Source of the DNA: a phage
Strand: one strand, 5' to 3'
DNA length: 64,000 bases
Sequence record: PZ295659.1
The position numbers were made by a program, and so were the translations under genes. The notes beneath the pieces are model-generated. The model worked only from the letters and a program-made list of their open reading frames with translations, made no database searches and was not told where the DNA came from. Positions 1,506-19,832 of this stretch are shown here, one piece after another; within the stretch, counting starts at the first letter, position 1, and each line of letters opens with the position of its first letter.

Positions 1506-2165
1506 TTAACCTCGATTCATAAATGCATTAAATATTTGGTCATCAACAGAAATTTCTAATTCGACTTCAATTGTTTCAGCCTTTTCTTCAGGTGGTAATT
1601 CGTATCCACACACTACAATTTTTTCATCGATATCAAAATACACAGAAGCAATACGATTAATGTTATTTTCGGTTAAGTCTAAATCAACATCAACATCTTT
1701 TTGACCTACACTTAAAGGATAACTAATACGGGTTATTTTATTATCTTTAACAAAGAGACCACCAACATACTCTGTACTACGTTTGAAGTTTACACGTTTC
1801 CGAAATGAAAGATATGATGCATCTTTACCGTGAGCTCGGCTCATAGGACATAATGAATAGCTAGAATAAGAGATGTCAAATCCTACACCTTCAATATGAG
1901 CCAACGCGTCATGATTAAACCAATTATAATCATATGCCAAATCCATTATATTGTAATATGTGAAAGGCACCGGATTAACATCATACGTTGTACCTTTAAA
2001 ATCTGCCCAGGCAACGATTTCGTTATCTTTAACAATTACAAAAATTACACCAATATGATATCCGTTATTATTTTCATTCGGCGTTATATTATAACATTGT
2101 GCATTAGGAAATTTACCATATTTAAACGGCGCATTTTTGTGCATATAATAAATCATATTATTCAC
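1506..2165 (-). CDS. hypothetical protein
   Basis: 219-aa ORF, no recognisable motifs. Confidence 0.55.
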   Translation of the reverse strand: MNNMIYYMHKNAPFKYGKFPNAQCYNITPNENNNGYHIGVIFVIVKDNEIVAWADFKGTTYDVNPVPFTYYNIMDLAYDYNWFNHDALAHIEGVGFDISYSSYSLCPMSRAHGKDASYLSFRKRVNFKRSTEYVGGLFVKDNKITRISYPLSVGQKDVDVDLDLTENNINRIASVYFDIDEKIVVCGYELPPEEKAETIEVELEISVDDQIFNAFMNRG

Positions 2166-2451
2166 CTGTGATTTCGGTTACGATATCTTTGTTATCGAAA
2201 TTAGGGTCACAATACAAGACATAATTGTACTGCATGATACCACCGGACTTAAGTTGTTCAACAACTTTATTAACCATATTAGGACGGTCTCGTTTAGTGA
2301 TGTTCATGATATCAGAGAAAATTTGTTGTTCAACATCTTCTTGATTTGCAGTCATTGACCACTCACAGAGGTCTTTATCATAACCTGCCGTAACTGGAGC
2401 CGGTGCACATGATACTGCAAGTAAGATTGCTGCCAATGATAACTTTTTCAT
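2158..2451 (-). CDS. sp: Spackle, periplasmic inhibitor of tail lysozyme (superinfection exclusion)
   Basis: 97 aa, signal peptide MKKLSLAAILLAVSCA, then GYDKDLCEWSMTA...LKSGGIMQYNYVLYCD as in T4 Sp; AAGGAG SD upstream. Confidence 0.85.
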   Translation of the reverse strand: MKKLSLAAILLAVSCAPAPVTAGYDKDLCEWSMTANQEDVEQQIFSDIMNITKRDRPNMVNKVVEQLKSGGIMQYNYVLYCDPNFDNKDIVTEITGE

Positions 2452-2470
2452 TTTAACTCCTTAGTTGATT

Positions 2471-2510
2471 TGATAGGACTACTATACTATAGTCCATCTA
2501 TAATGTAAAC
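2471..2510 (-). promoter_or_regulatory. early promoter with stem-loop (PeSL type) upstream of sp
   Basis: Minus strand GTTTAC -35 (plus gtaaac 2505-2510), ~18-bp spacer, TATAGT -10 inside inverted repeat gataggact/agtcc. Confidence 0.5.
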
Positions 2511-2514
2511 AAGT

Positions 2515-2763
2515 TTATTCTTTTTCGCGAATAATAATTACTTGTTGAGGCTGCTGAGCAGATTTCTTTTCGGCAACGATAGACCAAATTAAAGTTCCAA
2601 TCCAACCAACCATCGTCCAGTTAAAGAGTAAAGATACAAAGAAGATTGCTGTTGTGCTTTTTGTGCCACGAATAAGTGCGATTACCCAAGGCAACATGTA
2701 AATGATGATTGAACCAATACCTGCGATTAAAACCGCTACTGAACTAGCTACGAATAATTCCAT
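2515..2763 (-). CDS. small membrane protein, superinfection-immunity (Imm)-like
   Basis: 82 aa, two hydrophobic helices; LPWVIALIRG...NWTMVGWIGTLIWSI resembles the Imm_superinfect family signature. Confidence 0.55.
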   Translation of the reverse strand: MELFVASSVAVLIAGIGSIIIYMLPWVIALIRGTKSTTAIFFVSLLFNWTMVGWIGTLIWSIVAEKKSAQQPQQVIIIREKE

Positions 2764-2824
2764 GTTAATTTCCTCTTGATTTGTTATGTTTATAATATCT
2801 TATTTTAACTTTGGCGTAAACCAA

Positions 2825-3193
2825 TTAATTAAATTTGTTTAAACGTTCAATACACTGGACGTAGTTATTTGCGATTTGTTTCTGGGTAGGCTCTTTACCA
2901 GTTGTTTCAATATAGCGAATGAATGCGATTTCAGTAGCCTGTAAGCAATGTTCTTTAACGCGCTGTTCTTTTGACATAGCTACGGTATCAGAATCACGAT
3001 AACGTTGAGCATGAGCATCAGCTTGAATCATTCGATTACCTACAGTAACCGGGTCTTCCACTTCAACTTTAGGTTGGTCATACTGTTTAACATTCGGATT
3101 GTAAATCAGTTGGCCAACGTTATTAGGGATAAAGCCGTGGGCACCACATCCGGTTAATCCAAATACCATTGCTAAAGCGATTAATTTTTTCAT
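2825..3193 (-). CDS. putative lipoprotein
   Basis: 122 aa; MKKLIALAMVFGLTGC signal peptide with lipobox LTGC. Confidence 0.55.
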   Translation of the reverse strand: MKKLIALAMVFGLTGCGAHGFIPNNVGQLIYNPNVKQYDQPKVEVEDPVTVGNRMIQADAHAQRYRDSDTVAMSKEQRVKEHCLQATEIAFIRYIETTGKEPTQKQIANNYVQCIERLNKFN

Positions 3194-3210
3194 TTCAATT
3201 TCCTCTGTAG

Positions 3211-3251
3211 TTGATAGAAAGATAGTAACACAGTATGCGATGCTTGTAAAC
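3211..3251 (-). promoter_or_regulatory. early promoter (GTTTAC -35 type) for lipoprotein gene
   Basis: plus gtaaac at 3246-3251, stem-loop-like gatagaaagatagtaacac, GAGGA SD and ATG at 3193. Confidence 0.45.
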
Positions 3252-3253
3252 AG

Positions 3254-3466
3254 CTATTTTAAACTTTTGCGAAATTTGCGTTTTTCTTGACGAATCTGTC
3301 GTTTAGTCGGACGTACAGCAAATTTAACGAAGTCCACTTTACCGTGTGGAAACTTTTCAGATGCTTCACAGTCCATCATTAGTTCCCATCCTTCCAGAAT
3401 AAGAGCTTTCCATTGTGTAGTTGATGCAAATTCGTATGTTGATGGTTTAAACACAGTTGAATACAT
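3254..3466 (-). CDS. hypothetical small basic protein (VRPTKRQ motif family)
   Basis: ORF 3254..3511 in track; start placed at internal ATG 3466 with GAGGA SD; C-terminus FAVRPTKRQIRQEKRKFRKSLK; paralog at 31249..31446. Confidence 0.5.
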   Translation of the reverse strand: MYSTVFKPSTYEFASTTQWKALILEGWELMMDCEASEKFPHGKVDFVKFAVRPTKRQIRQEKRKFRKSLK

Positions 3467-3467
3467 A

Positions 3468-3659
3468 TTATCCTCTGAAATCAGCTTCGAAAACTTTCTC
3501 GTCATTAACAAACGCTTTAACTAATGCGTTGTTCACTTCAGCAAGTTGTACCGCAACCCACTCGATTTCTTCGCTATCACCTGATAACATGATATCTTTA
3601 GTGAACATCTCGCCGCTTTTAAACCAACCGATAAAAGTAACTTTAGTTAATTTGCTCAT
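3468..3659 (-). CDS. dmd: Dmd, antitoxin against host RnlA/LsoA RNases
   Basis: MSKLTKVTFIGWFKSGEMFTKD...YAEVNNALVKAFVNDEKV matches T4 Dmd (gene 61.5); ATG overlaps upstream stop (ATGA). Confidence 0.8.
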   Translation of the reverse strand: MSKLTKVTFIGWFKSGEMFTKDIMLSGDSEEIEWVAVQLAEVNNALVKAFVNDEKVFEADFRG

Positions 3660-3973
3660 ATTTCCTCGCAAAATGCCCATTCAGCGTGATAAACTGTAGC
3701 ACCTTTAGTATTATTCATTTGAACTACGTCTACCGGAGAAATTACTCGATAGAGACGTGGTTCACCTCCATAAGAGCGTGCTGCTCGTCCTGCATAAATC
3801 TTTGCTAAACCGATATCTTCAGTAAAGAATACACGATCCAAGTTTTTCTTACGTCCAGTTTCAGACAGAACTCCTGTTTCTTCAGGAGGACAAAGTATAT
3901 TTTCGATGTTAGCTGAACTACTTGAACCGTGATAAAAAATCTTAAATTCTGCTTTACAATCGATGGTTTTCAT
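3656..3973 (-). CDS. hypothetical protein with HGS...Y...E motif
   Basis: 105-aa ORF between 41 and dmd; FYHGSSSS, YAGRAARSY, YHAEW motifs noted. Confidence 0.5.
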   Translation of the reverse strand: MKTIDCKAEFKIFYHGSSSSANIENILCPPEETGVLSETGRKKNLDRVFFTEDIGLAKIYAGRAARSYGGEPRLYRVISPVDVVQMNNTKGATVYHAEWAFCEEI

Positions 3974-4039
3974 TTTGTTCTCCTCTTGGTTGGTGTAAGT
4001 ACATCATATCATGCCTAGAGGAAGATGTAAACCCCGAAA

Positions 4040-4061
4040 GGAGACCGAAGTCTCCTTTTTA
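4040..4061. terminator. GC hairpin immediately 3' of gene 41 stop (orientation ambiguous)
   Basis: ggagac-cgaa-gtctcc at 4040-4055; T-run follows on plus strand, weaker U-tract on minus strand. Confidence 0.35.
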
Positions 4062-5504
4062 TTAAAATTTTAACTCATTGGCTAAGCTATCTAGGTCAGC
4101 ACGTGTTGTTTTGGCTTTACCTACGCGTTCCGTACGATTCATCTCTGCCTGACGCATCTGAGCACCTGCGTTTTCATTTACTGTGTTAGGTGTGTTCATG
4201 CCTTCTTGCTCAATCTCAACCCATTTCTGGTTGCCTTTACGTACACCCATCAGGAATTTATTCCACTTATTCTTATCACCGTATCGTGATTTGATTTGTT
4301 TGATAAGTTGTTGTTCAGCTTGTGCAAGTTCTTCGGTTTCAATTACGGCCAACATGAAATCTGCCGTTGCTGGTAAACCTGCTGATTCTGCAATATCGCT
4401 CATGTTCATATCCGAAGCATCCCATGCTGCACGTCCTACTTGAGCTGCAGTCCATAGAACTGTTTCAGATTCTACTGCTAATGCACGAAGTTCTTCTGCG
4501 ATAGCTTTAACTAATGTGTAGCTATTTTCAGTGTAAACTCTGATACGACAAGACCCACAAATACCTAAGTAATCAACCATGATTACAGATGGCACAAAGT
4601 TCTTCTTGAGTTTCAATTCATTAAGCAATGCACGGAATGTATTAGCATTAGCTCCACCAGTAGGATACTGTTTAACTACTAAACGTCCTAATGTGGATTT
4701 TGAACGCCATTTTTCCATCTTGGCTTTATATTCAGCATAAGATACGTTACCATCATCGATATCATCAAGTGATACGTCAAGCATGTTTGCATCTATACGC
4801 TTAGCACAAACTTCTTCAGCCATTTCCATGGAAATATAAAGAACATTATGACCTGTTTGAAGATAATCTGCAGCAAGTGAACAAAGGCCTAAAGATTTAC
4901 CAACGTTAACACCGGCCATTAAAACATTCAGTGTACCGGTTTCAGCACCACCTTTAGTGATTTTATTCAGAATGTTTAATTTGAACGGGACCTTACGTGC
5001 TTTGTTCAGATAAGAAAGCCAGCGGGCTTCATAGTCTTCCATCCAGTCGTGTCCAACATAACTATCAAACGAAATTGAAAGTGCTTGACGCATAATATCA
5101 GGAATAGCTCCTACGTCAGGCATTTTCTTGTTACGTTGTTCTGGAGGTAGTTCAGCATTAGACTGAATCTCAATGATTTTGGATGTAGCATTATACATCG
5201 CTTTTTGCTGGACATATTTCTCAGTTTCTTTAACCAACCATTCGTGGTCTTCAGGAGTATCAGCCAATTTTTCAATTAGGTCTGAAGTTCCTTTATATTC
5301 GGCTTCAGTTAAAGAACTGTTATCTAAAGCCACCTTTAATGCGTTGATAGACGGCATTGCATTATATTCGTTAACGTGGCTCTTTATAATTTTAAAGACG
5401 TTTTTTGCCGGTCCACGCTCAAAATACTCAGAATCCATATAAGGCCAAACCTTAGAAAAATAAGCCTGGTCATATACTAGATGAGACAAAATAATTTCTA
5501 CCAC
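4062..5504 (-). CDS. 41: replicative DNA helicase gp41 (DnaB-like)
   Basis: 480 aa, near-colinear with T4 gp41 (MVEIILSHL...Walker A GVNVGKS...). Confidence 0.95.
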   Translation of the reverse strand: MVEIILSHLVYDQAYFSKVWPYMDSEYFERGPAKNVFKIIKSHVNEYNAMPSINALKVALDNSSLTEAEYKGTSDLIEKLADTPEDHEWLVKETEKYVQQKAMYNATSKIIEIQSNAELPPEQRNKKMPDVGAIPDIMRQALSISFDSYVGHDWMEDYEARWLSYLNKARKVPFKLNILNKITKGGAETGTLNVLMAGVNVGKSLGLCSLAADYLQTGHNVLYISMEMAEEVCAKRIDANMLDVSLDDIDDGNVSYAEYKAKMEKWRSKSTLGRLVVKQYPTGGANANTFRALLNELKLKKNFVPSVIMVDYLGICGSCRIRVYTENSYTLVKAIAEELRALAVESETVLWTAAQVGRAAWDASDMNMSDIAESAGLPATADFMLAVIETEELAQAEQQLIKQIKSRYGDKNKWNKFLMGVRKGNQKWVEIEQEGMNTPNTVNENAGAQMRQAEMNRTERVGKAKTTRADLDSLANELKF

Positions 5505-5513
5505 GATAACTCC

Positions 5514-5855
5514 TTAAAAGAATTTAAATTTTTTCTTGGTCCGTTCATTAAAAGCTTGTTGTACTTGCATTGTAACACATTTTTCAACATGTGGTGCAAG
5601 TTCTGCTTTTCTGTCCTGGTCAAGAACTGCAAAGTCCATTACGATTTTACCATCAACCCAGTCTAGTTTTGTAATATAGACTATATGATGAGAACCATCT
5701 TCAAGCGTAATCAGAATCTCTTGAATGACATTTTCCATTGCTGAACGGATAATTTTAAGAGATTCATTAAACACTCGTTCTTTGCGAATGTCTTCCCCTT
5801 CCGAAGAAGGGGATTCATCAACGATTTCTAGATTTAAATCATCGAGATTATTCAT
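5514..5855 (-). CDS. 40: gp40 head vertex assembly chaperone
   Basis: Syntenic small ORF between uvsX and 41; track ORF starts at a TTG, ATG at 5855 preferred. Confidence 0.6.
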   Translation of the reverse strand: MNNLDDLNLEIVDESPSSEGEDIRKERVFNESLKIIRSAMENVIQEILITLEDGSHHIVYITKLDWVDGKIVMDFAVLDQDRKAELAPHVEKCVTMQVQQAFNERTKKKFKFF

Positions 5856-7020
5856 CGAAATCTTCCATTTCGTCAAGGTCGTTTTCTATATCTGCTGCAG
5901 ACGGAGCATCAGAAGTTTTAACCGGAACTTTAGTTGTTGCTTTGCAATTAATAAGGTCGTTAACAGCGTCATCAACTTCTTTAATAGAAGAGATAGCACC
6001 TAGTTTATATTTAGTTTCAATTGCATCTCGGAAAGGTTTGTGTTTAAACAACGGTCCCCAGAATTCTACACAATCAGTAGCTTTAGCACGCCATGATTTT
6101 TCTTCACGAATCATTTCACCTGTTTCTTCGTCAAGGAATTCACGAGCATACCAACCAGCTTTAGGCTTAACTACAAAACCAATTTCAGTTGCCATTTCTA
6201 ACAAGCCACTGAATGGGTCAATACCACCATCAAAATTAACTGTGATCGGAAAAGTAGATTTCTCTTTAACCGTACGAGATTTTTCTGCTTTCAACGTGAA
6301 GTCATAACCGGTCAATTCTGTACCTTCTTTAACCTGACGTTTAGAGATAAAGAATACAGTGTTAGCAGAGTAAAGAATACCTGTACCACCACCCATAATC
6401 TCTTTAGGATACAATCCGCCAATTTCCATTGCGGTATGGTTAATTGCAACACACGGAATATCTTTAATAGTCAGATACGGGGTCACAATGCGGAACAGAG
6501 ATTTAAGTGCCTTAGCACGAGACATATCACCTACAACTTTCTCGTTCAATGCATCTTCGGTTTCTTTCTTAGATGCAGTATTACCGATTGAATCGATAAA
6601 GATAATAACTTTATCACCGCGTTCAATCGCGTCAAGCTGATTAGTCATATCAACTTTAAGTTGTTCGACAGATTGAATCGGAGTATGAACTACACGGTCT
6701 AAATCAACACCCATTGAACGAAAATAAGATTCTGAAGCACCAAATTCTGAATCATAGAACAAACAAATTGCATCTTTATATTTCTTCATATATGCTGCAA
6801 CCATGGTCAGACCAAACAACGTTTTAAAGTGTTTAGAAGGAGCAGCAAAAATAGTTAAGCCTGATTGCAACCCGGCATTCAGTGCACCACCTAATGCAAT
6901 ATTCAACATCGGAATACGAGTAGGGACTTCATCACGATTATTAAACAGCTTAGACTTAGTCAAGTCTGCAGTCATTTTAGAAGTAGAAGCTTTAATCAGA
7001 CGAGATTTTAAATCAGACAT
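5848..7020 (-). CDS. uvsX: UvsX RecA-like recombinase
   Basis: 390 aa, MSDLKSRLIKASTSK... RecA fold motifs, colinear with T4 UvsX. Confidence 0.95.
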   Translation of the reverse strand: MSDLKSRLIKASTSKMTADLTKSKLFNNRDEVPTRIPMLNIALGGALNAGLQSGLTIFAAPSKHFKTLFGLTMVAAYMKKYKDAICLFYDSEFGASESYFRSMGVDLDRVVHTPIQSVEQLKVDMTNQLDAIERGDKVIIFIDSIGNTASKKETEDALNEKVVGDMSRAKALKSLFRIVTPYLTIKDIPCVAINHTAMEIGGLYPKEIMGGGTGILYSANTVFFISKRQVKEGTELTGYDFTLKAEKSRTVKEKSTFPITVNFDGGIDPFSGLLEMATEIGFVVKPKAGWYAREFLDEETGEMIREEKSWRAKATDCVEFWGPLFKHKPFRDAIETKYKLGAISSIKEVDDAVNDLINCKATTKVPVKTSDAPSAADIENDLDEMEDFDE

Positions 7021-7670: not shown

Positions 7671-8570
7671 TTATTCCTCGATTACGACATCTTCATATTT
7701 AGGTATATTATACGGCGAAGAAATTAAAGCATTAAAGTAGATGAACTCACCAAGACCTGGATGGAATACTTCTTCAGGATTTTCGAAATATTGAATCTTC
7801 GGTCGTCCTTTAAGAATTTGATAGTACTCAGTTTTAGTTGGGTTAAAAATTCGAATCAGCGCTTCTTCAGGATACTTATTTCTGTCGAAGCTATTATTTG
7901 GATCGGTTATATAAAGCGGTTGGCCTAATTGAATTGCACATTCAACCACTTGTTCAAAACGATAACACGGGTCACTAATTCGAAATGGATGAAAAATACC
8001 ATCTAGATGAATAGGAGCCAAATCACCTACAAGACGCTGCATGATGGAAGGACGTATAACTTTCTGCGTTACGATAATCTTATTACCATCTGCACCTGCG
8101 TTAACCAGCACTTCTTTTTGACGTTCATTCAACACAGTAGTTTGAAGTGAACGATTAACCGACAACATGTCGGTTTTTAAGAATTCGTCAATATAAAAAC
8201 GTGGTTTATTAGGGTCCGCAGTGATATTGAAATTGAATTCCACATCAAAAGCGCCGTCATATCCAGTGATATCTGTGATTAGAAAATCACAATCATAATA
8301 AGCAATTAATGAATCAACCACAAATTCATTTTCAGACCAGAAATATTTACGAGTGTTATATGCGTTATCTTTATACCATAATGGAACAAACTTAAATTCT
8401 GGGAAAAGACGTTCACATTCTTTAATATCAGATGCATTACGTGGATATGTAATCACATCACCCGGATTAGCACGGTGCAAATGAAGTTGGAAGTTGCCAT
8501 CCTTAAGGATAGCATACTGTCCAGTTTCATAAGACCGCATACTCAAGATAGGTACGCGGAAAATAGCCAT
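7671..8570 (-). CDS. hypothetical protein; candidate DNA glycosyl(arabinosyl)transferase
   Basis: 299-aa ORF at the position T4 uses for beta-gt, no clear T4 bgt similarity; HPGLGEF region faintly GT-B-like. Confidence 0.5.
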   Translation of the reverse strand: MAIFRVPILSMRSYETGQYAILKDGNFQLHLHRANPGDVITYPRNASDIKECERLFPEFKFVPLWYKDNAYNTRKYFWSENEFVVDSLIAYYDCDFLITDITGYDGAFDVEFNFNITADPNKPRFYIDEFLKTDMLSVNRSLQTTVLNERQKEVLVNAGADGNKIIVTQKVIRPSIMQRLVGDLAPIHLDGIFHPFRISDPCYRFEQVVECAIQLGQPLYITDPNNSFDRNKYPEEALIRIFNPTKTEYYQILKGRPKIQYFENPEEVFHPGLGEFIYFNALISSPYNIPKYEDVVIEE

Positions 8571-9286
8571 TAGTCAAGGAATCCTTTAACATAATCAAAA
8601 TCACGTTCAAACACATGGGCACTTACCATGGTATGAGTATAATCACCAACTTCTACACCACATTCGTTAGCGATATAATGAAGTAATTTTCCTTGGAGAT
8701 AAAAATCCAACTGCATAACAACAGCACAGTTCTGAGAACGCATATGACAGTGGGTATAAAGCTTACCATCACGAATATAATAAGTCACTGAGTCAGTACA
8801 TGGATATTCAAGTGTTTCGTCCGAATCAAGCAAAGCCTGATCTGAACTTTCTAGAATTTGGAACACAACTCTTCGGGAGTTAGGCTTCTCTTTAAGTTCT
8901 TTTAGAAGAGCTGGTAATTGAGCCGCAATGCGAGGACCGTAGAAAGTGTTGAAGTTTGCAGGCAAAGCGTCTGATTTAGGTTTAGAAATAAATTTAGCGA
9001 CATTAGGATATGCCTTAAATGCTTCTTCTGCATCAGTACCACCAGAAATCATAAACTTCCAGAAGTCTTCGGCATATTCATAAGAGATGCGATTAATACG
9101 TGGATCGGTCATTTTGAATGATGAAGGGGTATCAACAACTACTGTCATAGACCCAATTTCATTACAACGTCCAATACGAGAATCAGTAACGAACTGTGGA
9201 TTTTCTAAAATTTCACGATTAACAGCTTTAAATGCGGATTGAAAATCTGCGGCTTTAATATATTTCATTGTGTTATGTTTTCCCAT
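8570..9286 (-). CDS. 42: deoxypyrimidine (dCMP) hydroxymethylase, thymidylate-synthase family
   Basis: NSRRVV, catalytic YPCTDSVTYYIRDGKL, MRSQNCAVVMQLDFY, ECGVEVGDYTHTMVSAHVFERDF align with TS/gp42 core; Asp rather than TS Asn in the pyrimidine-recognition position. Confidence 0.75.
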   Translation of the reverse strand: MGKHNTMKYIKAADFQSAFKAVNREILENPQFVTDSRIGRCNEIGSMTVVVDTPSSFKMTDPRINRISYEYAEDFWKFMISGGTDAEEAFKAYPNVAKFISKPKSDALPANFNTFYGPRIAAQLPALLKELKEKPNSRRVVFQILESSDQALLDSDETLEYPCTDSVTYYIRDGKLYTHCHMRSQNCAVVMQLDFYLQGKLLHYIANECGVEVGDYTHTMVSAHVFERDFDYVKGFLD

Positions 9287-9302
9287 GTTTACCTCAATAC
9301 AG

Positions 9303-9330
9303 TTATTATATACTCAATTCATAAAGCTTA
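9303..9330 (-). promoter_or_regulatory. possible MotA-dependent middle promoter upstream of gene 42
   Basis: Minus strand AAGCTTTA (MotA-box-like) followed ~12 bp later by TATAAT. Confidence 0.35.
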
Positions 9331-9406
9331 TTTGAATTTCTTAGCAATGTTGATATAACGTAAAGCTTCAGCATCGATACTTCCAAGAACACTATGAAGA
9401 AATGCA

Positions 9407-9568
9407 TCAGCGTAGTATTCTAGTTGAACAGGTTTCTTTAATCACTTTAGCCGCTTTAGTTTCAAACAGGCCCATAAGGGCCTTTTTAAGAATTTGTTCG
9501 TTGCTGTTAATTTTCGTAGTCAAAATCTCTTCATTAAGTTGGTGGTTAAAAGTTTTTCTAGAAATCAT
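9407..9568 (-). CDS. micro-ORF (53 aa) translationally coupled to upstream gene
   Basis: ATG overlaps stop of 386-aa gene (ATGA), GAGGT SD; MISRKTFNHQLNEEILTTKINSNEQILKKALMGLFETKAAKVIKETCSTRILR. Confidence 0.35.
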   Translation of the reverse strand: MISRKTFNHQLNEEILTTKINSNEQILKKALMGLFETKAAKVIKETCSTRILR

Positions 9569-10725
9569 TCCGGGTACCTCAAAGCGTCGTCAGAGTTAGT
9601 TATATCAATAATAGATATAGAGTTTTCTGCTAACCCATTTTTAGATAACTGACGTTTATAATATCTTTCACAATATGTACACGTCGTCCCGCAGATTTCA
9701 TTAGCACAATCGAAATCTGGATGTCTGAACCACCTTTTTTCTAAAAAGCCATCTAACAAAGAGGTTTCAATATTTACCGTATGTGAAAACTCGGTCTCAT
9801 TTTCAAGAGTGAAAATAGTCTCTAAAGGCTTCCACAATTCCAACAAATTACCTTCAAATTTTTCAGAAGCATAAGCTTCAAGAACTTTCAAAATGTAGTC
9901 TGTGCTACCTGTACGTCCTGAAACTTTGAATTGAGTGATACCAATATCATTATAAAGTTTCAAATCTTGAGGACGAACAAAACGAGTTCTCAACCAGTTA
10001 AATGGGTCTGTATCACGAGCTTTAATACAGTGTTGCATTGGATAGCCATTTAAGGATTTGGCATCATCTACTGTAACGTCGGTGCTATGGAAAATATAGC
10101 AAGAGTCACGATAGCTACAATGTGTTGTATACCCTTTACCAGCATTAGAACAGAACTCATTTACAAGAACTTCAAATATTATATTGTTCTTATTGCAAAA
10201 CTCTGCTGCACGCTTCAGGAAAGAAACTGAACGGTTCTTATGAATTCCACAGCAGACCTTTTTGATATTATATTGGTCATGCAAGTATTTGATTTGAGTT
10301 ACAGCATCGACATGTAGAATTGTTGAAACTTCAATCTCAATGTCTTTATTAACTTCACGAACAATTTCCATAACAACAGGGTTAGCGATAGTAATACGCC
10401 ATACGCCTATTGACCAAAGATACTGAACATAATCCTGAATAGCTTTCTTCTTCCACTCAACTAGTTCTCTTTTTGAACCAGGATTTATCGTGTTGAGTGT
10501 ATAGTTAAAGCAAATACCTAATTCGTTACAACGTTTAACATAATCTTCTAACATCTTTTTGTCAACGTCAGGAAGCCTAAAATCAGGTCTGGCTGCTACA
10601 AAAGCCATTTCTCTTGTAGAGCCGTATACTTCATTTATCAAGCTATTAGGATAAGTTTTATTGAGCTCTACGATTTTATCAAGAAGAGCTAAATCAAAAT
10701 TCGTTCCGATTTTAAAAGTATTCAT
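9565..10725 (-). CDS. Cys-rich enzyme of unknown function (U32-like layout, C-terminal CX4CX3CX2C cluster)
   Basis: 386 aa; N-terminal region resembles peptidase-U32-type TIM-barrel proteins; C-terminal CANEICGTTCTYC; several central Cys. Confidence 0.5.
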   Translation of the reverse strand: MNTFKIGTNFDLALLDKIVELNKTYPNSLINEVYGSTREMAFVAARPDFRLPDVDKKMLEDYVKRCNELGICFNYTLNTINPGSKRELVEWKKKAIQDYVQYLWSIGVWRITIANPVVMEIVREVNKDIEIEVSTILHVDAVTQIKYLHDQYNIKKVCCGIHKNRSVSFLKRAAEFCNKNNIIFEVLVNEFCSNAGKGYTTHCSYRDSCYIFHSTDVTVDDAKSLNGYPMQHCIKARDTDPFNWLRTRFVRPQDLKLYNDIGITQFKVSGRTGSTDYILKVLEAYASEKFEGNLLELWKPLETIFTLENETEFSHTVNIETSLLDGFLEKRWFRHPDFDCANEICGTTCTYCERYYKRQLSKNGLAENSISIIDITNSDDALRYPE

Positions 10726-10779
10726 TTTTACATCTCGCGTTAATTGATGCGATGGTTTTTGCAGGTCTTACTTAAATTA

Positions 10780-11181
10780 TTATAGATTCGGTTTATATGA
10801 TTTAAATGTTTCGAATTCGCCTTTATTCATAAGAGCTTTGAATTCGTCAGGACGCATAGCTTTGTCGTCGATAATCCAATCATATACTGGTTTATGTGTT
10901 AGCAAATTATGGTACTTCAAGCCAATGTTTGCCAAGTTCTGAATCAGACTTGGGAGAATGTCAATTGCTATACGACCAGGACCTACTGACTTCATACCGC
11001 GAGCAGTGTAAAGCGTTATTGTATGCCCTGCATCATACAGGGCATTAATGGCAGACACCATTTCGACGTCTGGTTTGAAGTTCACGTAATCACGATTGTT
11101 ATTCCACTCGGTTATACAATCATCGACATCAAAACAAAGATTAAGCATGTTTTCTACACGGTGCATTAGATTCGTTCCCAT
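10780..11181 (-). CDS. HAD-superfamily phosphatase-like protein
   Basis: 133 aa; motif I FDVDDCIT, motif II LYTAR, motif IV IIDDK. Confidence 0.6.
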   Translation of the reverse strand: MGTNLMHRVENMLNLCFDVDDCITEWNNNRDYVNFKPDVEMVSAINALYDAGHTITLYTARGMKSVGPGRIAIDILPSLIQNLANIGLKYHNLLTHKPVYDWIIDDKAMRPDEFKALMNKGEFETFKSYKPNL

Positions 11182-12851
11182 TGATGAGTGATATCGCCAC
11201 CGATTGGACGATAGGAAACACCAGTTTCTTTATCAGTTAGTACCCATTTACCAGGATTTTTTGTAATCAGAGTAGCCGTTACAGGTTCTGCTACGTCATA
11301 ACTAATAGAGCCGTCTTGAAGTACACGGCCCATGTTACGTAATTGCTTAGTCAGAAGTTCCATACCTTTATAATATGCGGCTACCGCTTTAAGTGGATTA
11401 TTCTTGAAATAACCACCTAATGCAATCCAGATAATTGCTACAGCCAAATGATGATACTCGTTAAACGAACTCATCTTTCCATATTTGTAAACTAATGGAT
11501 TGATGTTAATAGTCACATTACAAGTTGTTTCATCAATAGTAAACTGACCCCAGGTCGGATTAGCGTTGAATTCATCATAACCTGAAACAGCGTAAAGCAC
11601 TTTAGCTTCATCATACAATTTTGGCCCGTAAATCTTGGTTTCACCAAAATATCCACGAGGGTCGATAAACTTGACTTCACCATTATCAGTAATCATAGTA
11701 TTACTGAAGTTCGGGTCACCATGAATAACAGAGTACTGTCCCTGAGAACGGTTATGATAACGAATAAGGTGTTCTAAAGCTTGTTTCAACATTGGCTTCA
11801 GACGTCCAATCTTAGTGTAGTTCACATGTGTGATTTTACCAAATGAATCAATCAATGGTTGAATACTTTCACAACGATCAATAACTTTCGTATAGAATTC
11901 TTTAGTGAAATCACGACGAACAGTTTCAGGACTTACAAAATAAGTGTCTGTGCTGAATTTCAGTGCATCTAAAATTGCATCAACAATTTGTGGACGAGCA
12001 AGACTCGATTTGGATTTAATATATTCAAATGCCGGCTTACCTTTAATGCGTTCCATTTCAAAGTTATTTTCATTAACAGAAACTAACTGAGGAACTGAAT
12101 CTGATTTCACTTTAAGATACCATGAAATCTCATCTTTCTGAAGAGCTCGACCCTGTTCGGTTAATGCGAATTTAGTTACAGTTTCTTCACCAATTTCAAC
12201 TGCATTAAAACTACGATTAAGTTCACGAACTTCATGAGCTTTTTCAAGTTTAGGCATATCACCTAAATCAATTAGATTCATAAGCTCTGATTTATTGAAT
12301 GCGCTGCCGTAAAGGAATTCTACGAAATCACGCCCTTTGCAGTATTCATGAATTTCCTCATCAGTAGAACCCATATAGAATTCCCAGTCTTTGAACTGAT
12401 AAATTCCTACAACATTACCACCTGTTGAACCTACGTTAGTGATATTTTCACCGTCGAAATTATATCGACATTCGTCACCCTTAACATAGATTGCGTTAAC
12501 ATTCCAAGACCATGAACCAAAATCAGGAATAATATCGCACCAGTTAACAATTACATTATGGCTGTCTAAATCTTTGTGTAATTTAGCAAGAGCATAAGCA
12601 GAACCATACGCTTCATCAACTGTACGAATAGTCACATTGAACCCTTCTTGCTCACAATAAGCTCGAACAGTTTCAGCAAATTTTGAATGAACTACTACAA
12701 TAATTTCATCTGCGCCAAGGTCAGAATAAATTGTATACAAATTGCTCAGAATAGTGTCTTGTTTATAGTTAACAAGCACCTTAGGAATATGATGCGTTAT
12801 TGGATACAAACGAGTTGCCAGTCCAGCACCAAGAATAACAGCTTTTTTCAT
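11166..12851 (-). CDS. bifunctional sugar-1-phosphate nucleotidyltransferase / APH-family anomeric sugar kinase
   Basis: 561 aa; N-terminal VILGAGLATRLYPIT (G-x-G-T-R-L NTase motif); C-terminal VIHGDPNFSN...KFIDPRG (Brenner motif and DxG of choline/aminoglycoside kinase fold). Confidence 0.8.
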   Translation of the reverse strand: MKKAVILGAGLATRLYPITHHIPKVLVNYKQDTILSNLYTIYSDLGADEIIVVVHSKFAETVRAYCEQEGFNVTIRTVDEAYGSAYALAKLHKDLDSHNVIVNWCDIIPDFGSWSWNVNAIYVKGDECRYNFDGENITNVGSTGGNVVGIYQFKDWEFYMGSTDEEIHEYCKGRDFVEFLYGSAFNKSELMNLIDLGDMPKLEKAHEVRELNRSFNAVEIGEETVTKFALTEQGRALQKDEISWYLKVKSDSVPQLVSVNENNFEMERIKGKPAFEYIKSKSSLARPQIVDAILDALKFSTDTYFVSPETVRRDFTKEFYTKVIDRCESIQPLIDSFGKITHVNYTKIGRLKPMLKQALEHLIRYHNRSQGQYSVIHGDPNFSNTMITDNGEVKFIDPRGYFGETKIYGPKLYDEAKVLYAVSGYDEFNANPTWGQFTIDETTCNVTININPLVYKYGKMSSFNEYHHLAVAIIWIALGGYFKNNPLKAVAAYYKGMELLTKQLRNMGRVLQDGSISYDVAEPVTATLITKNPGKWVLTDKETGVSYRPIGGDITHQWERI

Positions 12852-12892
12852 GTTGTGGTCCTCATTGGTAAGTAGGAGTATTGTACACTATT

Positions 12893-13036
12893 CTAGTTAA
12901 AGCATTCATACTTTGCTTGTAGTCCAATCATAATCCATCCGATTACAAGTGTTGGAATCATTACTGGAGCCGTTAAGCTCCAGTAGATAGTCATGACAAG
13001 CATCAATAGTAAAAGTCCTATTGTTATTGCTTTCAT
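12893..13036 (-). CDS. micro-ORF encoding 47-aa hydrophobic peptide
   Basis: ATG overlaps stop of SIS gene (ATGA); MKAITIGLLLLMLVMTIYWSLTAPVMIPTLVIGWIMIGLQAKYECFN; followed by GAGGA SD of NTase/kinase gene. Confidence 0.4.
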   Translation of the reverse strand: MKAITIGLLLLMLVMTIYWSLTAPVMIPTLVIGWIMIGLQAKYECFN

Positions 13037-13668
13037 TGTTCGCCTCGTAACATGGCACCTAGTGCACCGCCAGGGTGGAACTTAAGGAAGTCATTAGAGG
13101 TAAATCCACGTTCAGACGAAAGGTTGATAGCAAACGTATCGATAAGCGCTAACAACAATGTAGTGGACATGGTCGGAGCCAGAGAATTCTCATCAACCTC
13201 TACTGCGATGCCTGTACAGAACGTATAATCAAAAAGAGCTTCATATTCTTGTGGAATGTCTGGGTTACAATGCAACAGAATCTGTTTGACGTTCGGACGA
13301 ATCATTTTAAGATGCTTAGCCACGCCTATCATTTCTTCAGTTTTACCAGAACGACTAATATGAATCAACACATCATTAGGCGCAATGAATCCTGCATCAC
13401 CGTGAGAATAATGCCCGGTGTTCAAGTACATACTAGGGATACCGAGTGAAGCAAATGTTTCAGAAGCTTTAGTTGCAATATTAGCATTCTTACCAACACC
13501 TGTAATAATTACTCGGCTTTCATAATTACTAAGCCCTGGGCGTCGAAGAGTTTCTAGAATAGCATTATAACGAGCAGGGTTTTGACTAATTACTTTGGCC
13601 ATAGCGGCCAAAGAAGAAGCTTGTTTTATGATTGCGTCAATAGCGATAGTAATAGGAGTAGTTTTCAT
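13033..13668 (-). CDS. D-arabinose-5-phosphate isomerase (KdsD/GutQ-like, SIS domain only)
   Basis: 211 aa; IITGVGKNANIATKASETFASLGIPSMYLNTGHYSHGDAG parallels KdsD GMGKSGHIG.K.AATFASTGTPSFF.HPGEASHGDLG. Confidence 0.8.
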   Translation of the reverse strand: MKTTPITIAIDAIIKQASSLAAMAKVISQNPARYNAILETLRRPGLSNYESRVIITGVGKNANIATKASETFASLGIPSMYLNTGHYSHGDAGFIAPNDVLIHISRSGKTEEMIGVAKHLKMIRPNVKQILLHCNPDIPQEYEALFDYTFCTGIAVEVDENSLAPTMSTTLLLALIDTFAINLSSERGFTSNDFLKFHPGGALGAMLRGEQ

Positions 13669-13708
13669 ATTTCTCTCATTTAATTAGTTTACCGTCCATG
13701 ACATTATA

Positions 13709-18475: not shown

Positions 18476-19162
18476 TTAGAAGTCGTGAGTAGAATCAGCT
18501 TCCATCGCAATAACATAACTTACTTGAGAGCTTTCAAACTTAGCTGCAACTTTATCACCAGCTCCCCACAACATTACTTTATAGTTACCTGGCTGGATTT
18601 TCATATTAGCCATATTGATTACGAAGTTAAAGTTATTAGAACCATCATAATCGGTAAGAGTCAAAGAATACTTAGGACGGGTTAGTCTAGAATCTTCAAC
18701 TTTATTATAGCCATTGATAACAATTTTACCATCTTTATTTGTAATAGCAATTGTATCAATCTGAAGACCACGTGAAACTCGAAGCAATTGTTGAAGGTCT
18801 TCAGCTTTAATTTCAGTAATCACAGAAGCCACTGGGAATTGAATTGGCTTATTAGGAAAAACAATGGTGCTCTTGTCAGCGGCAGGCCAATAAACCGTGG
18901 AACGTGTATCTGCAATTTTAATATTGCCATCAGTGTGCATTGAAATTTCAGCATCATCAGACACTAGACTCAAAATGCTTAAGAAGCTATTCAAATCATA
19001 AAGTGCTACGTCAAAATCAATTTCATCAGAGATATTTGCTTCTGCATAAGTGGTGCCATTAACTGCACGAGTCATAATAAATTTACCTTGACTCAGCAGA
19101 ATGCCGGAGTTAATAGAGGCAAAGTTTTTCAGAATAGCGATAGTATCTTTAGACAGTTTCAT
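18476..19162 (-). CDS. 45: sliding clamp gp45
   Basis: MKLSKDTIAILKNFASINSGI... matches T4 gp45; start at second Met of track ORF. Confidence 0.9.
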   Translation of the reverse strand: MKLSKDTIAILKNFASINSGILLSQGKFIMTRAVNGTTYAEANISDEIDFDVALYDLNSFLSILSLVSDDAEISMHTDGNIKIADTRSTVYWPAADKSTIVFPNKPIQFPVASVITEIKAEDLQQLLRVSRGLQIDTIAITNKDGKIVINGYNKVEDSRLTRPKYSLTLTDYDGSNNFNFVINMANMKIQPGNYKVMLWGAGDKVAAKFESSQVSYVIAMEADSTHDF

Positions 19163-19202
19163 TTTATTTCCTTTCAAGACAATTCAAAGTTTAACAAATT
19201 TA

Positions 19203-19619
19203 TTATGCAGCAGCCATTTGCTTTTTAATAGCTTCAGGCAGTGATTCAATATATTCTGGAATTTTAGAAGCAACAATTTCGCCAGCTGCAATTAGTTGTT
19301 CGTCGGCATCAACACAGTAGAAATCTTCCAGACGCTCAGAACCATCTTTATCAAGAACGATTTTTCCGCCGGCTTCAATAGAATCTTTATAGTGCTTACG
19401 CATCAGATGAATCCACATATCAGATACATCGTTATCAATAAAACCATAAATCATAAAACGAGTTTCTTGTGGCAAAGATTGGAGTTTTTTAGCACTTGCG
19501 TCATCACAATGCAGGACCCATGCTTTACGAACACGATTATGGTTATGTGGGTTAGCGTCAGTACGGATAGAAGTAACTTTCAGATCAGCAGCAGTGAAAC
19601 CTTTAGCAGTAGTAAACAT
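19203..19619 (-). CDS. rpbA: RNA polymerase binding protein RpbA
   Basis: 138-aa ORF at the T4 rpbA position between 45 and 46. Confidence 0.7.
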   Translation of the reverse strand: MFTTAKGFTAADLKVTSIRTDANPHNHNRVRKAWVLHCDDASAKKLQSLPQETRFMIYGFIDNDVSDMWIHLMRKHYKDSIEAGGKIVLDKDGSERLEDFYCVDADEQLIAAGEIVASKIPEYIESLPEAIKKQMAAA

Positions 19620-19631
19620 ATTATTTCTCTC

Positions 19632-19832
19632 TTATTCGTAGAAGTCGGTAACTGTCCATGCGGAATTGCGATTAGACATTATTTTATTATACTCATCTTT
19701 AAAAGCAGATTTGAGCATTTGTTCAGTAACAATATGTTCTTCACCTGAAAACGTATTGGTCAAAACATATTTTTTAATTTCAGGGACAACGAGAAGATGT
19801 TGGCCAGTTGAATACTCCATGTTGTTCTCCAT
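19632..19832 (-). CDS. hypothetical protein (45.2 position)
   Basis: 66-aa ORF. Confidence 0.5.
   Translation of the reverse strand: MENNMEYSTGQHLLVVPEIKKYVLTNTFSGEEHIVTEQMLKSAFKDEYNKIMSNRNSAWTVTDFYE

Follow-up and report, generated by a model that had tools for sequence, protein, structure and literature searches.

The 64,000-nucleotide stretch of phage DNA from sequence record PZ295659.1 (hereafter, the window) carries three small genes, imm.1, imm, and sp (Spackle), side by side on its minus strand. The trio is transcribed in the order imm.1, imm, sp and occupies positions 2158-3193, from the stop codon of sp to the start codon of the lipoprotein gene imm.1. Taken as a whole, this is very probably an RB69-like locus with single-copy imm.1, imm, and sp, in which the imm.1-imm pair was relocated in the ancestor of Mosigvirus. 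The cluster is ordinary rather than new, as the GenBank record of RB69 (AY303349, ∼18654-19689) already annotates the layout 61.4-imm.1-imm-sp-61.2, and this RB69-type arrangement of known genes is present in all ∼155 Mosigvirus records that have them. Three observations go beyond the existing annotation: the linkage of imm and imm.1 in 13 loci, a second adjacency of imm and sp, and the presence of a sugar module beside imm/imm.1 in other phages. The three genes are as follows.

2158-2451, minus strand: sp (Spackle, orthologue of T4 gp61.3), 97 amino acids, complete open reading frame (ORF)
2515-2763, minus strand: imm, inner-membrane protein of 82 amino acids, complete ORF
2825-3193, minus strand: imm.1, lipoprotein of 122 amino acids (DUF5481/phrog_1754), complete ORF

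Identification of the three genes

By sequence comparison, the membrane protein is a true Imm orthologue. It matches the Imm_superinfect family (PF14373; E=1.8e-15, 56.9 bits with a cutoff of 27.9) over profile positions 1-42 of 42 as well as phrog_1039 (E=1.2e-30), and it shares 64% identity with T4 Imm along the full length (53/83). A hidden Markov model (HMM) scan detected a single Imm-family ORF in the window, and imm occupies one place per record in 1041 records. The possibility that the gene is a paralogue existing besides a canonical imm was rejected, given that just one Imm-family ORF was found. An earlier note on this DNA had reported that a Spackle gene and an Imm-family gene are adjacent, unlike in T4, and the ORFs listed above with their PF25676 and PF14373 matches bear this out. 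The note had called the membrane protein Imm-like and proposed a search with the Imm_superinfect profile, in which the lack of a match would count against its idea; the search returned a match above the cutoff, and the family assignment holds, but the protein is more than Imm-like, being the single-copy orthologue of T4 Imm.

A hydrophobic stretch extends over residues ∼3-62 of the Imm protein, and residues R32 and W49, which correspond to R33 and W50 of T4 Imm, are invariant in an alignment of nine lineages. In T4, the W50A and R33A substitutions reportedly lower exclusion, Imm is co-purified with gp29, the tape-measure protein, whose helical-bundle domain it binds, and plasmid-expressed Imm by itself excludes T4 (bioRxiv 10.64898/2026.03.06.709160). 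By analogy with the T4 orthologue, the window Imm would bind the helical-bundle domain of gp29 at the inner membrane and block the formation of the DNA channel.

The Sp protein matches the T4_Spackle family (PF25676; E=1.1e-42, 145 bits with a cutoff of 27) over residues 1-96 of 96 and phrog_1586 (E=2.9e-42), and it aligns with T4 Sp without gaps at 66% identity. Its signal peptide ends at ...PVTA/GYDKD (the slash marks the cleavage point), a cleavage context shared with T4 Sp, and both Cys29 (...A/GYDKDLC29EW) and Cys81 (LYC81D) are conserved between the two proteins. T4 Spackle, a helical protein with a disulfide bond, resides in the periplasm, where it binds the tail lysozyme gp5 and inhibits it; the Cys29-Cys81 disulfide of the mature helical bundle is described in the same study (PMC7677548). 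At 66% identity to this protein, the window Sp is expected to be exported to the periplasm and to inhibit the gp5 lysozyme of a superinfecting phage. A lipobox-like motif precedes Cys15 in the Spackle signal peptides (LAS/C in T4, at 3008-3052 of the T4 stretch compared, and AVS/C in the window, at 2407-2451, Sp residues 1-15); the literature view of Sp is that of a soluble periplasmic protein of 75 amino acids cleaved after residue 22.

The lipoprotein is, by the same comparisons, the orthologue of T4 Imm.1 and not a new third element. It matches DUF5481 (PF17578; E=4e-9, 37.2 bits with a cutoff of 27) and phrog_1754 (E=1.1e-28), shares 32% identity with T4 Imm.1 along its full length with the lipobox included, and is the single Imm.1-family ORF found by the HMM scan of the window. 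The lipobox consists of MKKLIALAMVFGLTG followed by C (LTG/C16), with Gly at +2. The earlier note was right that a lipobox lipoprotein with its own promoter is present, and mistaken only in placing it after Imm: transcription runs from right to left, so that the lipoprotein gene comes first and not last.

The Imm.1 family is small, with 37 clusters at E<=0.001 in an exhaustive HMMER scan of 1.84 billion representatives. A homologue search with the window Imm.1 alone yielded three proteins and was extended by the alignment of nine lineages. A lipobox is present in 38 of the 41 short sequences recovered (family members plus a few weaker matches), none of which has Asp at +2, and the alignments reveal that Cys83 and Cys114 are invariant. 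According to the +2 sorting rule of Escherichia coli, a lipoprotein that lacks Asp at +2 is delivered to the outer membrane; because Imm.1 lacks this residue, it is predicted to be anchored there. In an AlphaFold 2 model, residues 1-46, comprising the signal peptide and a linker, have no ordered structure, while residues 48-121 form a three-helix bundle with the cysteines on helices 2 and 3; the predicted local distance difference test (pLDDT) score is 77-88 over residues 70-120. The model suggests a disulfide-bonded three-helix bundle on a flexible tether that faces the periplasm.

Two metagenomic proteins, P0002 (122 amino acids) and P0031, belong to the Imm.1 family but have the lipobox cysteine replaced by an ordinary signal-peptide end, ..LAGFSAHA/S. 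Some variants hence do without the lipid tether. With 45% identity to the window Imm.1, P0002 is intermediate between the Mosigvirus and T4 forms. The RefSeq record NC_000866 calls T4 imm.1 (9637-10014 of the T4 stretch compared) 'iduronate sulfatase', a name that has spread to other phage records. This name has no support from Pfam, NCBIfam, or PHROGs and is treated here as an annotation artefact. A literature search on imm.1 and DUF5481 returned no relevant publication, and the Imm preprint is silent on Imm.1.

Relocation of the imm.1-imm pair

The window is, on the basis of DNA identity, from an RB69-like Mosigvirus. Its DNA is ∼98% identical to that of RB69-like Mosigvirus phages such as PNJ-9, HX01, and ST0, and 151 records match at least 80% of a 7-kb query taken from it. 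The RB69 locus has the same genes in the same order, spacing, and strand, with 97.6% identity across the Imm.1 and Imm protein and no difference within the three genes; what the window lacks is a neighbouring RB69ORF041c-like gene of 124 amino acids, located between 41 and ORF040c.

In T4, the same genes map to two places of one early region, ∼6 kb apart. The first reads 43, imm.1, imm, 42 and the second 41, dmd, 61.4, sp, 61.2. The T4 orthologues have the same lengths as those in the window, and the lipobox, the cysteine pairs, R33 and W50 of Imm, and the Sp cleavage context are kept. The T4 pair, however, lies downstream of 43, whereas the window pair lies beside sp; the window imm has its own promoter in a 61-nt spacer, whereas the gap in T4 is 11 nt; and Imm.1 is far more diverged (32% identity) than Imm (64%) or Sp (66%). 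The genes that bound the trio in the window are as follows.

3254-3466, minus strand: 61.4 (DUF7279), the upstream boundary of the inserted pair; in T4, sp directly follows 61.4
1506-2156, minus strand: 61.2/adfA (anti-DarT factor A; PF23813, E=1.4e-120), the downstream boundary, as in T4

Adjacency across phages was counted with fused-protein tblastn queries. In 659 records, at least 80% of a fused Imm.1 and Imm query mapped to one joined place; these records represent every Mosigvirus and Tequatrovirus record with a detectable Imm.1. BLAST is blind to Imm.1 outside these two genera, and other lineages were checked locus by locus. The phrog_1754 lipoprotein lies beside imm in 13 of the 13 loci examined outside the Morganella/Providencia group, namely T4, three Mosigvirus phages, fDHCT2 (Dhakavirus-like), RZ (Gaprivervirus), Merlin (Moonvirus), Ursula, a Gelderlandvirus, JD18 (Jiaodavirus), Roth01, Serratia phage 4S, and PS2 (Muldoonvirus). 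The order is inverted to imm, imm.1 in fDHCT2 and RZ, with an ORF of 47 amino acids between the two genes in RZ. Since the pair is always downstream of gene 43 in the non-Mosigvirus loci of this set, parsimony identifies the Mosigvirus position as derived, and the comparison of loci indicates that imm.1-imm moved as a unit from downstream of 43 into the 61.4/sp junction.

The interval between 42 and 43 that houses the pair in T4 is filled in the window by a sugar module, as the earlier note had observed; the module has SIS, nucleoside triphosphate (NTP)-transferase, and U32-like genes.

8570-9286: gene 42
9287-13708, minus strand: 42-43 interval, an arabinose/sugar module encoding a U32-like protein of 386 amino acids, a protein of 133 amino acids, an NTP-transferase-like protein of 561 amino acids, and a SIS protein of 211 amino acids
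13709-16420: gene 43, encoding DNA polymerase

The module matches the arabinosyl-hydroxymethylcytosine module of RB69, including the 561-residue ORF53_52c (Thomas et al. 2018, PMC6024577). No remnant of imm or imm.1 was found in 9287-13708, and the HMM scan of the whole window gave one Imm and one Imm.1 match. A homologue of the 561-amino-acid gene directly follows imm/imm.1, downstream of 43, in Serratia phage 4S and fDHCT2 (51% and 42% identity, respectively). Because module and pair coexist in these phages, the module did not force the pair out, and the displacement of imm by the sugar module was rejected as an explanation of the move.

The imm-sp adjacency was counted in turn with fused Imm and Sp queries. 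It is present in ∼160 records, out of more than 980 that have these genes, and in two lineages only; elsewhere, imm and sp map to separate places. The records comprise Mosigvirus, five Gualtarvirus records (Morganella phages MP1 and Rgz1 and Providencia phages PSTRCR_127 and PSTRCR_121 among them), and Providencia phage PSTCR6. In MP1, PSTRCR_127, and PSTCR6, an Imm-family gene is immediately followed by a Spackle-family gene, the same order as in the window. Unlike in the window, the two genes overlap (by 1-4 nt), the neighbourhood is tk-rI-...-imm-sp with the pair ∼2 kb downstream of rI and tk, and no Imm.1-family gene lies within 3 kb of imm-sp. The pair is located at 2519-2952 of the PSTRCR_127 locus and at 3001-3467 of the PSTCR6 locus, and the Sp protein is short, with 80 amino acids, again unlike that of the window.

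Early promoters and cassette shuffling

The spacers within imm.1-imm-sp measure 61-63 nt, the gap between imm.1 and imm being 61 nt. A spacer of ∼60 nt directly upstream of each of sp, imm, and imm.1 contains a sigma-70-like site whose -35 element is of the extended GTTTAC type that characterises early promoters of T4.

2481-2510, minus strand: T4-type early promoter of sp, GTTTACA-17-TATAGT
2792-2821, minus strand: T4-type early promoter of imm, GTTTACG-17-TATTAT
3222-3251, minus strand: T4-type early promoter of imm.1, GTTTACA-17-TACTAT, with a TG extension

These are three of the 20 matches to GTTTAC-N18-TANNNT in the window, all 20 of which are on the minus strand (expected number, 0.99 +/- 0.97). 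The 20 matches also provide a ready map of early transcription units over the 64 kb. T4 has no counterpart of the imm promoter, since a gap of only 11 nt separates imm.1 from imm there. No terminator hairpin was detected in the imm.1, imm, and sp spacers, which contain promoters only. With three separate promoter motifs, the genes display neither a shared transcription unit nor translational coupling; coupling was seen only for sp-adfA, with a gap of 1 nt, and for the Morganella/Providencia imm-sp pair. A 20-nt palindrome, GGACTATAGTATAGTAGTCC, at 2476-2495 overlaps the -10 box of the sp promoter and is not present in the 61.4-sp spacer of T4. The palindrome may serve as an operator-like site or form a 5' RNA hairpin.

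The imm.1-imm pair moved as a unit in the ancestor of Mosigvirus, over ∼6 kb but without leaving the early region, and entered the 61.4/sp junction. The move probably occurred by recombination between the repeated early-promoter/ribosome-binding site elements that flank small early genes, that is, by shuffling of the promoter early stem-loop (PeSL) type. With an early promoter in front of each gene, co-expression does not require adjacency, which may have arisen largely neutrally through the shuffling of cassettes. The locus resembles the PeSL systems of T4-type phages (PMC2839356, PMC4122927) in that small early genes are flanked by near-identical early promoter/ribosome-binding site elements: one such element recurs in variant form in the spacers next to imm.1, imm, and sp and in those of T4 at the two loci. 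A further likeness is a one-gene indel near the cluster, with its junction between a -10 box and a Shine-Dalgarno sequence. The indel lies between the following two genes.

4062-5504, minus strand: gene 41
3656-3973, minus strand: RB69ORF040c-like ORF of 105 amino acids (phrog_2110), with no Pfam match, overlapping the start of dmd by 4 nt

Most relatives, such as PNJ-9 and RB69, have the extra 124-amino-acid gene RB69ORF041c (phrog_10668) at this point. In the window, the 41/ORF040c spacer (3974-4061), which is 800 bp from the imm.1-imm-sp cluster, is a chimera of the two flanking elements. It is also the only spacer with a full hairpin and promoter element, consisting of AAAAGGAGACTTCGGTCTCCTTT followed by GTTTACA-17-TATGAT. 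The same class of crossover has been demonstrated for PeSL cassettes in RB49/phi1 (PMC2839356).

Several results weigh against the reconstruction outlined so far. Unlike the spacers of PeSL systems, those of imm.1, imm, and sp are not full PeSL elements, having promoters without stem-loop terminators. The alignment of window and T4 spacers gave no breakpoints for the move of imm.1-imm, because all early-promoter spacers resemble each other. The mechanisms assigned to the proteins are all transferred from T4 orthologues that are 64-66% identical. The Imm.1 model is of moderate quality (mean pLDDT 61.5), and a Foldseek search of it against the PDB, Spackle structures included, returned no match at E<1. 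A Spackle-like fold for Imm.1, which had been considered, is thus not supported. Finally, the exclusion role of Imm.1 discussed below comes from synteny alone, and two observations run counter to it: Imm excludes T4 from a plasmid in the absence of Imm.1, and in the Morganella/Providencia lineage no Imm.1 accompanies imm-sp within 3 kb. It follows from these two observations that Imm.1 cannot be essential for Imm.

Possible role of Imm.1 and alternative explanations

From its synteny with imm, the likeliest role that can be named for Imm.1 is that of an accessory, probably non-essential periplasmic factor in exclusion or envelope protection, a suggestion that is offered tentatively. Its sequence conservation bears on the nature of a putative partner. 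All 502 Tequatrovirus records, which include T4, T6, and isolates on Yersinia, Salmonella, and Citrobacter, have an Imm.1 of at least 95% identity, and the identity between the Tequatrovirus and Mosigvirus forms is just 32%. This genus-specific pattern fits a partner that is conserved in the phage itself, and we infer that the partner would be a conserved, genus-specific component of the incoming phage. Imm.1 might then be a third component of T-even exclusion or envelope protection that neutralises, and co-evolves with, a periplasm-exposed part of the tail tip (the spike complex or the emerging tape-measure protein), although this remains rather doubtful. Tethered in the outer membrane, Imm.1 would then complement the action of Sp at the cell wall and that of Imm at the inner membrane. 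A role as third component would explain why inversion, the acquisition of a promoter, and translocation have left Imm.1 next to imm in the 13 loci.

The strongest alternative is that Imm.1 is unrelated to exclusion, the linkage being that of a shared ancestral transcription unit, and that the protein acts in some other part of envelope biology, such as lysis timing, envelope-stress control, or the countering of host envelope defence. Imm works without Imm.1, one lineage has imm without Imm.1 nearby, and the order is flipped in fDHCT2 and RZ, all of which agree with an unrelated function, as do the abundance of counter-defence genes (dmd, adfA) in the vicinity and the lack of any imm.1 paper in the literature searches. 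The linkage nevertheless outlasts the inversion of order, the intervening ORF in RZ, the separate promoter in the window, and the translocation, and such persistence exceeds operon inertia in a region this plastic. An unrelated function is accordingly plausible, if short of probable.

The second alternative concerns the locus rather than Imm.1. The earlier note had viewed the co-location as a consolidated envelope-defence island, and selection could in principle have assembled an exclusion module in which recombination between co-infecting relatives keeps or transfers the whole exclusion phenotype together. The arrangement is fixed in all the ∼155 Mosigvirus records, but common descent by itself would lead one to expect such fixation in a genus. 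In the Morganella/Providencia phages, imm and sp are adjacent too, in a distant lineage and a different neighbourhood; this second, independent juxtaposition is suggestive and the only support for a favoured co-location. On the other side, adjacency is confined to the two lineages and to ∼160 of the more than 980 records, the genes have separate promoters, and those of T4 were already only ∼6 kb apart. The matching partners, gp5 and gp29, are moreover encoded far off, so that linkage of imm with sp links neither of them to its target. A selected module is therefore unlikely, and of the island idea the independent adjacency survives, while the separate early transcription units and the short distance between the T4 genes speak against it.

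The third alternative is that Imm.1 masks a receptor. T5 Llp is an outer-membrane lipoprotein that inactivates the receptor of the phage, and lipoproteins of the T5 Llp/Cor kind are, like Imm.1, small, phage-encoded, early-expressed, and linked to exclusion (by synteny for Imm.1). An Imm.1 of this kind would inactivate its own receptor from the periplasmic side and block further adsorption, in keeping with its canonical lipobox, the lack of Asp at +2 throughout the 38 members with a lipobox, its early expression as judged by the promoter, and its small periplasm-facing domain. T4, T6, and phages of Yersinia, Salmonella, and Citrobacter use different receptors, whereas the conservation of Imm.1 tracks the genus and not receptor use, which argues against masking. 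Since no sequence or fold relationship to the T5 proteins was detected, and since T-even exclusion leaves secondary adsorption unblocked (PMC6832632), receptor masking is very improbable.

Neighbouring genes

Every gene in the first 7000 nt of the window is on the minus strand, and transcription from right to left gives the order uvsX, 40, 41, the 105-amino-acid ORF, dmd, 61.4, imm.1, imm, sp, 61.2/adfA, a 65-amino-acid ORF, and a 61.1-like ORF. The primase gene 61, which comes after the 61.1-like ORF, is truncated by the left end of the window. Two further genes complete the region.

5848-7020, minus strand: uvsX
3468-3659, minus strand: dmd, just upstream of imm.1-imm-sp

The interval between 41 and 61 harbors small envelope and counter-defence genes, namely dmd, 61.4, imm.1, imm, sp, and adfA. 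The adfA start codon (ATG) is 1 nt past the sp stop codon with no promoter between them, and sp is therefore probably co-transcribed with this anti-defence gene. No gene is annotated between 41 and dmd in T4, where the window has the 105-amino-acid ORF. A scan with NCBIfam gave zero matches for any of the small proteins.

Positions 820-1314 contain a single ORF of 164 amino acids that corresponds to phrog_2086, the C-terminal part of which matches phrog_1823, a family of ∼54 positions that may correspond to T4 gp61.1. The ORF covers roughly what the GenBank record of RB69 divides into RB69ORF032c and 61.1, a split that could be due to a frameshift or a sequencing difference in the old RB69 record.

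Implications

As a standard RB69-type layout of known genes, the cluster in itself changes little. The residual interest lies in the uncharacterised Imm.1 and its persistent linkage to imm in nearly every lineage examined. The mechanism of Sp was solved in 2020 and that of Imm is newly reported in a 2026 preprint, while no published study was found of Imm.1, the lipoprotein encoded beside imm. If it is true that Imm.1 aids exclusion or resistance to lysis from without, the T-even model would gain a third layer, one that is anchored in the outer membrane. The locus is also a clear case, found in nature, of a cassette of two genes that has changed place inside a hyperplastic early region with repeated promoters on its flanks.

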